From the NCBI RefSeq assembly GCF_003334355.1, contig NZ_QOWP01000030.1: 45,643 nucleotides of DNA; one strand, given 5' to 3'. Positions 29,646 through 29,746 of this stretch are shown here, one piece after another. The stretch comes from Escherichia coli. Lineage in GTDB: Bacteria; Pseudomonadota; Gammaproteobacteria; Enterobacterales; Enterobacteriaceae. Under the pieces are notes generated by a model. That model had not been told where the DNA came from. It worked only from the letters and a program-made list of their open reading frames with translations, and ran no database searches. Both the position numbers and the translations under genes were made by a program. How positions within the stretch are numbered: the stretch's first letter is position 1; each line of letters opens with the position of its first letter.

Positions 29646-29746
29646 ATATCTGTAATAAGAAATAGCCCTCGCCGCTTCCCTCTACAGGAATGGCGAAGGG
29701 CTGTCGGTTTCGACATGGTTGGCCATCGTATGATGGCCTTTTTTGT
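29646..29746 (+). ncRNA. sdhX: sdhX (RybD) 3'UTR-derived small RNA of the sdh-suc transcript
   Basis: Position immediately after the sucD stop and ending in an intrinsic terminator, as I recall for SdhX. Exact 5' end not determinable from sequence. Confidence 0.6.
29721..29746 (+). terminator. Intrinsic terminator of the sdh-suc operon and sdhX
   Basis: Hairpin GGCCATC-GTAT-GATGGCC followed by TTTTTT, ending 3 nt before the convergent mngR stop. Confidence 0.85.

Follow-up and report, generated by a model that had tools for sequence, protein, structure and literature searches.

Assignment of the 3'-untranslated region of sucD in Escherichia coli to the small RNA SdhX, and of its terminator next to the convergent gene mngR

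The analyzed stretch of DNA, termed the window in the following, comprises 45,643 nt of an E. coli genome (assembly GCF_003334355.1, contig NZ_QOWP01000030.1). The region under study lies between the end of sucD, the final gene of the sdhCDAB-sucABCD operon, and the convergent gene mngR. The stop codon of sucD is TAA (29643-29645), and that of mngR occupies positions 29749-29751, given on the plus strand. Window positions were converted to positions of strain MG1655 by adding 735404. The locus contains the following features:

28776-29645, plus strand: coding sequence of sucD (succinyl-CoA synthetase alpha), an ORF of 289 amino acids that is annotated under this name both in MG1655 and in PGAP genomes
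29646-29746, plus strand: sdhX (b4764), curated, 101 nt, assigned by identity to NC_000913.3 765050..765150
29664-29702, plus strand: stem-loop 1, which is the variable domain at the 5' side; it is specific to the Escherichia lineage and present in both the MFE and the centroid structures
29674-29687, plus strand: katG-pairing region (SdhX nt 29-42, GCUUCCCUCUACAG), which includes C34 and is complementary to the Shine-Dalgarno region of katG, CUGUAGAGGGGAGC
29703-29714, plus strand: predicted mini-hairpin GUCG-GUUU-CGAC, by which, according to folding, the seed of the long form is partly masked
29709-29719, plus strand: conserved seed UUCGACAUGGU (SdhX nt 64-74), an exact match to the published seed (PMC6393394)
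29721-29738, plus strand: Rho-independent terminator hairpin with 7 bp (5 GC pairs), a GUAU loop and a dG of -11.5 kcal/mol, supported by covariation
29739-29744, plus strand: U6 tail, with the 3' end mapped at 29744 by published Term-seq
29749-30471, minus strand: mngR (farR), the convergent neighbour outside of the sRNA, an annotated ORF of 240 amino acids

The sequence following sucD was compared with the curated record of E. coli K-12. In MG1655 an ncRNA gene, sdhX ('small regulatory RNA SdhX'), is curated between sucD and mngR. The window sequence was identical to it in 101 of 101 positions on the plus strand, and the coordinates coincided exactly. The sRNA thus does not contain a single difference from K-12 SdhX, while 32 of 3001 flanking positions differ between the window strain and MG1655. 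The section from 29400 to 29950 is identical to that of strains such as ATCC 8739, E. coli C and BLR(DE3). The long form of SdhX spans the entire 3'-UTR of sucD and starts directly after the stop codon. The seed, G62 (which together with U63 occupies 29707-29708), C34 (29679), the terminator and the mapped 3' end were all found at the places published for SdhX. Taken as a whole, the element at 29646-29746 is almost certainly SdhX (formerly RybD), an Hfq-dependent sRNA derived from a 3'-UTR. An earlier note, made from the DNA alone, had named this position as that of sdhX, and this is borne out by the complete identity, the matching coordinates and the presence of the seed, the terminator and the complementarities to targets that have been published. 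SdhX is already known, and its recognition in raw sequence is a correct annotation, not a discovery.

Neither a scan of the whole window with the gathering thresholds of Rfam 15 nor a permissive scan (E <= 10) of 29500-29900 yielded a match to SdhX or RybD. The sole matches in the latter interval were a terminator-only match to isrD (17.3 bits, gathering threshold 37) and a chance match to snoR9 (11 bits, gathering threshold 90, E 4.3), which suggests that Rfam 15 simply does not contain an SdhX family. Likewise, in 0 of the 45 PGAP genome matches listed (20 + 25) was an ncRNA feature annotated under the SdhX match, and in one of them a gene for an RtcB-family protein overlapped it. Therefore, the identification rests on the curated record and on the literature. 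A covariance model of the core that consists of seed and terminator would fill this annotation gap.

The 3' end of the sRNA was characterized next to its fold. The terminator consists of GGCCATC (29721-29727), GTAT (29728-29731), GATGGCC (29732-29738) and TTTTTT (29739-29744), exactly as the earlier note had described the strong terminator that closes the roughly 100 nt after the sucD stop codon. In published Term-seq data, a very strong 3' end was found at MG1655 765148(+) in three of three conditions, with scores of 19841.8 and 34703.6 given; this position corresponds to the last U at 29744. The curated end of sdhX (29746) lies 2 nt further downstream. Folding of the 101-nt RNA resulted in a dG of -41.3 kcal/mol (z = -4.7), and none of 200 shuffled sequences folded as well. 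A simple terminator scan as a class did not exceed chance (7 sites in 5 kb compared to 5.1 +/- 2.5 in shuffles). The site is nevertheless real, as judged from the fold relative to the shuffles, the covariation of the hairpin and the Term-seq 3' end.

The window also contains an ATG-initiated ORF of 33 codons that starts inside of SdhX (29690-29791, plus strand) and is present in the program-made list of ORFs. We rejected it as almost certainly spurious, and there is next to no probability that it encodes a small protein: it crosses the terminator, passes the mapped RNA 3' end and enters antisense mngR, its start falls into the lineage-specific part, for which other genera have unrelated sequence, and its sole purine-rich stretch (AGGA) directly abuts the ATG.

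The proximity of mngR raises the question of whether the terminator serves both genes. The stop codon of mngR is 4 nt away from the T-run (GTGC, 29745-29748), 2 nt from the end of sdhX and 10 nt from the base of the stem (29738). The earlier note had placed the base of the terminator 3 nt from this stop codon; the closeness was correct, but the exact figure was not. It had also claimed that the terminator is common to mngR. A hairpin that acts bidirectionally, so that one terminator ends two convergent units, would be in accordance with this short distance and with the lack of any further hairpin between the two. In addition, a collision-driven class of terminators is known between convergent E. 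coli genes, for which a pausing hairpin suffices and a canonical U-tail is unnecessary (bioRxiv 10.1101/2022.10.23.513370); this preprint mentions neither sucD nor mngR. Also in bidirectional terminators described by SEnd-seq, e.g. ynaJ-uspE, one hairpin lies between two convergent genes, as is the case at sucD/mngR. However, in contrast to that class, the SdhX hairpin works as a canonical intrinsic terminator, and a strong one, in a single direction. Its plus-strand tail is UUUUUU, whereas the tail on the minus strand is AACCAUGU, with 2 U in 8, such that it is not an intrinsic terminator in the direction of mngR, and the terminator scan reported the site on the plus strand only. Moreover, the only curated Term-seq 3' end in the region 7649xx-7652xx of MG1655 in the three conditions was 765148(+), and none was on the minus strand, although mngR was possibly not expressed. 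A stronger minus-strand candidate, with the tail AUUUCUUA, is located further on, as discussed below.

The comparison of lineages was also informative in this respect, because the terminator turned out not to be tied to one convergent partner. The same sRNA and hairpin precede mngR, a gene for an RtcB-family protein, a TPR pseudogene, or an unrelated sequence in E. albertii, and the copies in these lineages differ only by substitutions in the loop and in stem-loop 1. The hairpin is thus retained where mngR is absent. Taken together, the minus strand without a U tail, the 3' end on the plus strand only, and the persistence of the hairpin where the downstream gene differs indicate that the terminator belongs to sdh-suc and SdhX. 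The assignment to mngR in the earlier note is not supported, and it is unlikely that the hairpin also ends mngR transcripts.

The same comparison revealed that homology among E. coli lineages breaks directly after the T-tract, at 29745-29750 (loci L085, L086, L087 and L005). The downstream sequences were of several types, i.e. mngR-mngA as in the window, a convergent RtcB-family gene beside hut genes (hutU), and a co-directional TPR pseudogene, and E. albertii is different again. The SdhX terminator forms the border of a variable accessory region. Coverage of 29400-29950 reached 80% or more in only 3883 of 5426 E. coli genomes.

The first terminator-like structure that a transcript of mngR would encounter on the minus strand is the antisense of stem-loop 1. 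It extends from 29702 to 29664 (-23.4 kcal/mol) and is followed by AUUUCUUAUU, with a tail to about 29655, and this predicted structure makes it a candidate for the intrinsic terminator of mngR. At this site, Term-seq contained no curated minus-strand 3' end. The idea that stem-loop 1 exists because of a role as mngR terminator found no support in co-occurrence, since E. coli lineages and E. albertii without mngR at this position still have the stem-loop. For the opposite direction, published DirectRNA-seq with and without bicyclomycin identified a region of Rho termination at MG1655 765604 (window position about 30200, plus strand; Rho score 2.86, p 2.3e-5). This region is antisense within mngR, which indicates that some sdh-suc transcription passes the SdhX terminator and is then stopped by Rho. 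An antisense link of the sdh-suc/SdhX unit with mngR is regarded as improbable. If mngR transcripts ended at the antisense of stem-loop 1, they would carry a 3'-UTR of about 90 nt to which the seed and terminator of SdhX are perfectly complementary, and this 3'-UTR could sponge or destabilize SdhX upon expression of mngR. In the other direction, strong transcription of the TCA operon could dampen the MngR repressor via read-through into antisense mngR.

Next, conservation of the sRNA was analyzed. A sample of 80 loci was collected via the SucD protein, not via the sRNA itself. The exact 11-nt seed, a hairpin of the GGCC type and at least six T were found together in 14 of 16 Enterobacteriaceae loci, at a distance of 27-64 nt from the sucD stop codon. 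The core of the seed, TCGACATG, also follows sucD in Serratia (three of four loci), Rahnella, Dickeya and Hafnia. Nothing comparable was present after sucD in the sampled Erwiniaceae, Morganellaceae, Yersinia artesiana, Budvicia and species outside of the Enterobacterales. The 5' part of SdhX is lineage-specific, and other genera have unrelated 5' domains. In an alignment of 21 species (A1), the seed and its core were nearly invariant. The terminator helix was paired in 100% of the cells in these species, with changes on both sides at four of the seven pairs. Its covariation score was 0.42 compared to 0.23 in shuffles, and 0 of 500 shuffles scored as high, while in slid controls the fraction of paired cells dropped to 22-62%. 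A functional sRNA core would be expected to combine a covarying helix with an invariant single-stranded seed next to it, as in this alignment.

These results bear on the possibility that the region is merely the 3'-UTR of the operon with its terminator and has no function in trans. A terminator is needed for ending and stabilizing the sdh-suc mRNA, removing the entire 3'-UTR reduces SucD protein (PMC6393394), and the terminator scan as a class was at chance level. However, the 11-nt single-stranded stretch 5' of the hairpin is kept across genera, whereas its flanks, the spacing and the sequence of the hairpin vary, and a conserved stretch beside a changing hairpin is not expected of a passive terminator. 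In addition, published compensatory mutations for ackA, fdoG and katG as well as Hfq CLASH hybrids in vivo already refute such a passive role, which is thus highly unlikely, and SdhX remains by far the preferred assignment of the region.

Within E. coli, SdhX was present in 5426 of 5426 complete genomes, and of 5427 matching records, 5420 had a best match with an identity of 95% or more. A natural disruption was observed in one of the 25 genome matches listed, i.e. in strain FDAARGOS_944 (L088, 3001-3880), in which an IS1 element interrupts the seed of SdhX and has duplicated 9 bp of target (TCGACATGG). The insertion splits the sdh-suc transcript from the core of seed and terminator. In Enterobacter sp. 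BIGb0383 (L017) and Serratia grimesii (L022), the seed is absent after sucD although close relatives carry it, and their 3'-UTRs contain a different hairpin and terminator instead. This suggests lineage-specific loss or replacement.

The variable 5' domain and the seed were then inspected in the context of the predicted fold. In E. albertii (L005, 3371-3470, compared with window positions 29672 and 29692), C27U and G47A form a compensatory pair that preserves stem-loop 1. In strain PBP5, nucleotides 45-46 of the stem-loop are changed from AU to GG. A single base separates the 3' end of the seed (29719) from the terminator stem. According to folding, the central seed nucleotides CGAC (nt 66-69) have a probability of being unpaired of 0.04-0.18 in the long form and of at least 0.82 in forms of 36-39 nt. 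The GUC..GAC arrangement underlying the mini-hairpin is present in 10 of 22 seed-carrying loci, mostly of Enterobacteriaceae. We infer that the processing in E. coli that yields the form of about 38 nt takes place at the GGUUU stretch in the loop of the mini-hairpin, between GG and UUU. Processing would then unmask the seed, which in this folding model is masked by the 4-bp mini-hairpin only in the long form. Both forms of SdhX are active when overexpressed (PMC6393394).

Identity, anatomy, complementarities, conservation and covariation were established here, and the 3' end, the dependence on RNase E and Hfq, and regulation stem from published experiments. SdhX is Hfq-dependent and is processed by RNase E from the sdhCDAB-sucABCD mRNA of about 10 kb, its parental transcript (Miyakoshi et al., PMC6393394). 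A strain with a temperature-sensitive RNase E loses both SdhX species (PMC6393394); the experiments on RNase E (rne-ts, R169K) and on the 5' ends considered here were performed in Salmonella. A form of about 101 nt and one of about 38 nt have been described (review PMC9438474), and Hfq CLIP and RIL-seq support the association of SdhX with Hfq (cited in PMC6393394). The role of the terminator poly-U in Hfq binding is known from the cited literature. The terminator hairpin together with the U6 tail would constitute the Hfq-binding module of SdhX.

An alternative to processing is independent transcription from a promoter inside of sucD, similar to MicL. It could account for the observation that the amounts of SdhX and of SucD protein do not always go in parallel (PMC6393394), and one weak promoter-like site with 9 of 12 matches was indeed found at 29200-29227. 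However, the upstream scan was at chance (4 sites versus 3.7 +/- 2.1), and this sole site is located about 420 nt upstream, too far for an RNA of 38-101 nt. Furthermore, neither a transcription start site nor a conserved promoter element has been reported, and both species are lost in the RNase E mutant (PMC6393394). A promoter of its own is thus very improbable for SdhX, and release from the operon mRNA is the preferred origin.

For the three targets ackA, fdoG and katG, the start regions were taken from MG1655, and the pairings with SdhX were re-derived from the sequence. Nucleotides 64-73 of SdhX pair with positions -2 to +8 of ackA (CCAUGUCGAG) by nine Watson-Crick pairs and one G-U pair, spanning the AUG and the UCG codon. 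Nucleotides 62-71 pair with positions -22 to -13 of fdoG (AUGUCGAAAC) by ten Watson-Crick pairs. G62 and U63 together with the seed make this pairing, and G62 is opposite to C-13 of fdoG, matching the published compensatory mutant. Nucleotides 29-42, including C34, pair with the Shine-Dalgarno region of katG named above. Prediction of duplexes with the full 101 nt was discarded, as it ignored intramolecular structure and gave meaningless duplexes over the whole length. Shuffles of the 18-nt seed region were a weak test; a fraction of 0.0175 of them matched or surpassed the pairing with ackA, and of 0.11 that with fdoG. As a rough estimate, complementarity of 9-10 nt would occur by chance in about a dozen of the approximately 4300 gene starts. 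Because short matches are expected by chance and the shuffle tests are weak, the pairings count only alongside published genetics. Compensatory mutations, including C34G for katG, prove base-pairing of SdhX with ackA, fdoG and katG, and G62 is required for repression of fdoG in E. coli and C34 for that of katG (PMC6393394). Chimeras of SdhX with ackA and with katG were captured in vivo in E. coli by Hfq CLASH (PMC7213987), and SdhX represses ackA selectively, while pta is spared (review PMC9438474).

Together, these data support the following mechanism. The transcript of about 10 kb terminates at the intrinsic terminator (29721-29744), and RNase E would cleave its 3' end from the mRNA, giving rise to the form of about 100 nt, which comprises the whole 3'-UTR, and to the core of about 38 nt with seed and terminator. 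Synthesis of SdhX, which most likely lacks a promoter, would accordingly follow the transcription of the TCA-cycle operon. Hfq would occupy the terminator and the U-tail, and the single-stranded seed UUCGACAUGGU pairs over the start codon of ackA, such that translation of acetate kinase is blocked and the co-transcribed pta is unaffected. This block ties the capacity of the TCA cycle to the metabolism of acetate and acetyl phosphate. In E. coli, fdoG is also repressed, by the seed together with G62, and katG is repressed by the Escherichia-specific 5' stem-loop region. The earlier note had also stated that SdhX couples expression of the TCA-cycle operon to acetate metabolism, which agrees with the primary literature via ackA (PMC6393394; PMC9438474). 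SdhX is a textbook case of an operon mRNA that regulates via an sRNA cut from its 3' end, and it connects the expression of TCA-cycle genes with acetate kinase and acetyl-phosphate levels.

Comparison with Salmonella separates common from species-specific traits. Salmonella SdhX1 (87 nt) and SdhX2 (38 nt) have the seed, the core of seed and terminator and the parental operon in common with E. coli, as well as the logic of RNase E processing and the conserved target ackA (PMC6393394). In contrast, Salmonella SdhX lacks the katG-pairing 5' region and has a U at the position of G62, and for these reasons it does not repress fdoG and katG (PMC6393394). Conversely, fumB and yfbV are repressed by the Salmonella form but not by E. 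coli SdhX (PMC6393394). CpxQ, NarS, MalH and SroC are similarly cut off an mRNA 3' end by RNase E, use the intrinsic terminator of the mRNA as Hfq-binding module and have a conserved seed just upstream of it (PMC9438474), but their parental genes, seeds and targets are different. The parental operon of SdhX is unusually long, with about 10 kb and eight genes, and the 38-nt form has been described as the shortest functional Hfq sRNA (PMC6393394).

Further RNA features were observed elsewhere in the window. Two matches to Rfam naRNA4 (CssrE) lie just upstream of sucC at 27359-27430 and 27450-27521 on the plus strand, with 59.5 and 59.8 bits at a gathering threshold of 59.5. Just downstream of them, Term-seq contains 'orphan' plus-strand 3' ends at MG1655 762937 and 762981 (window positions 27533 and 27577). 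A match to the ES036 (CssrF) sRNA is present at 5587-5629 (plus strand, 75 bits), and a full-length match to the CpoB/ybgF intercistronic RNA thermometer at 44085-44223 (plus strand, 142 bits, E 1.4e-28). Four tRNA matches are located at 45150-45639 on the plus strand, with an overlapping match to RtT RNA at 45157-45325.
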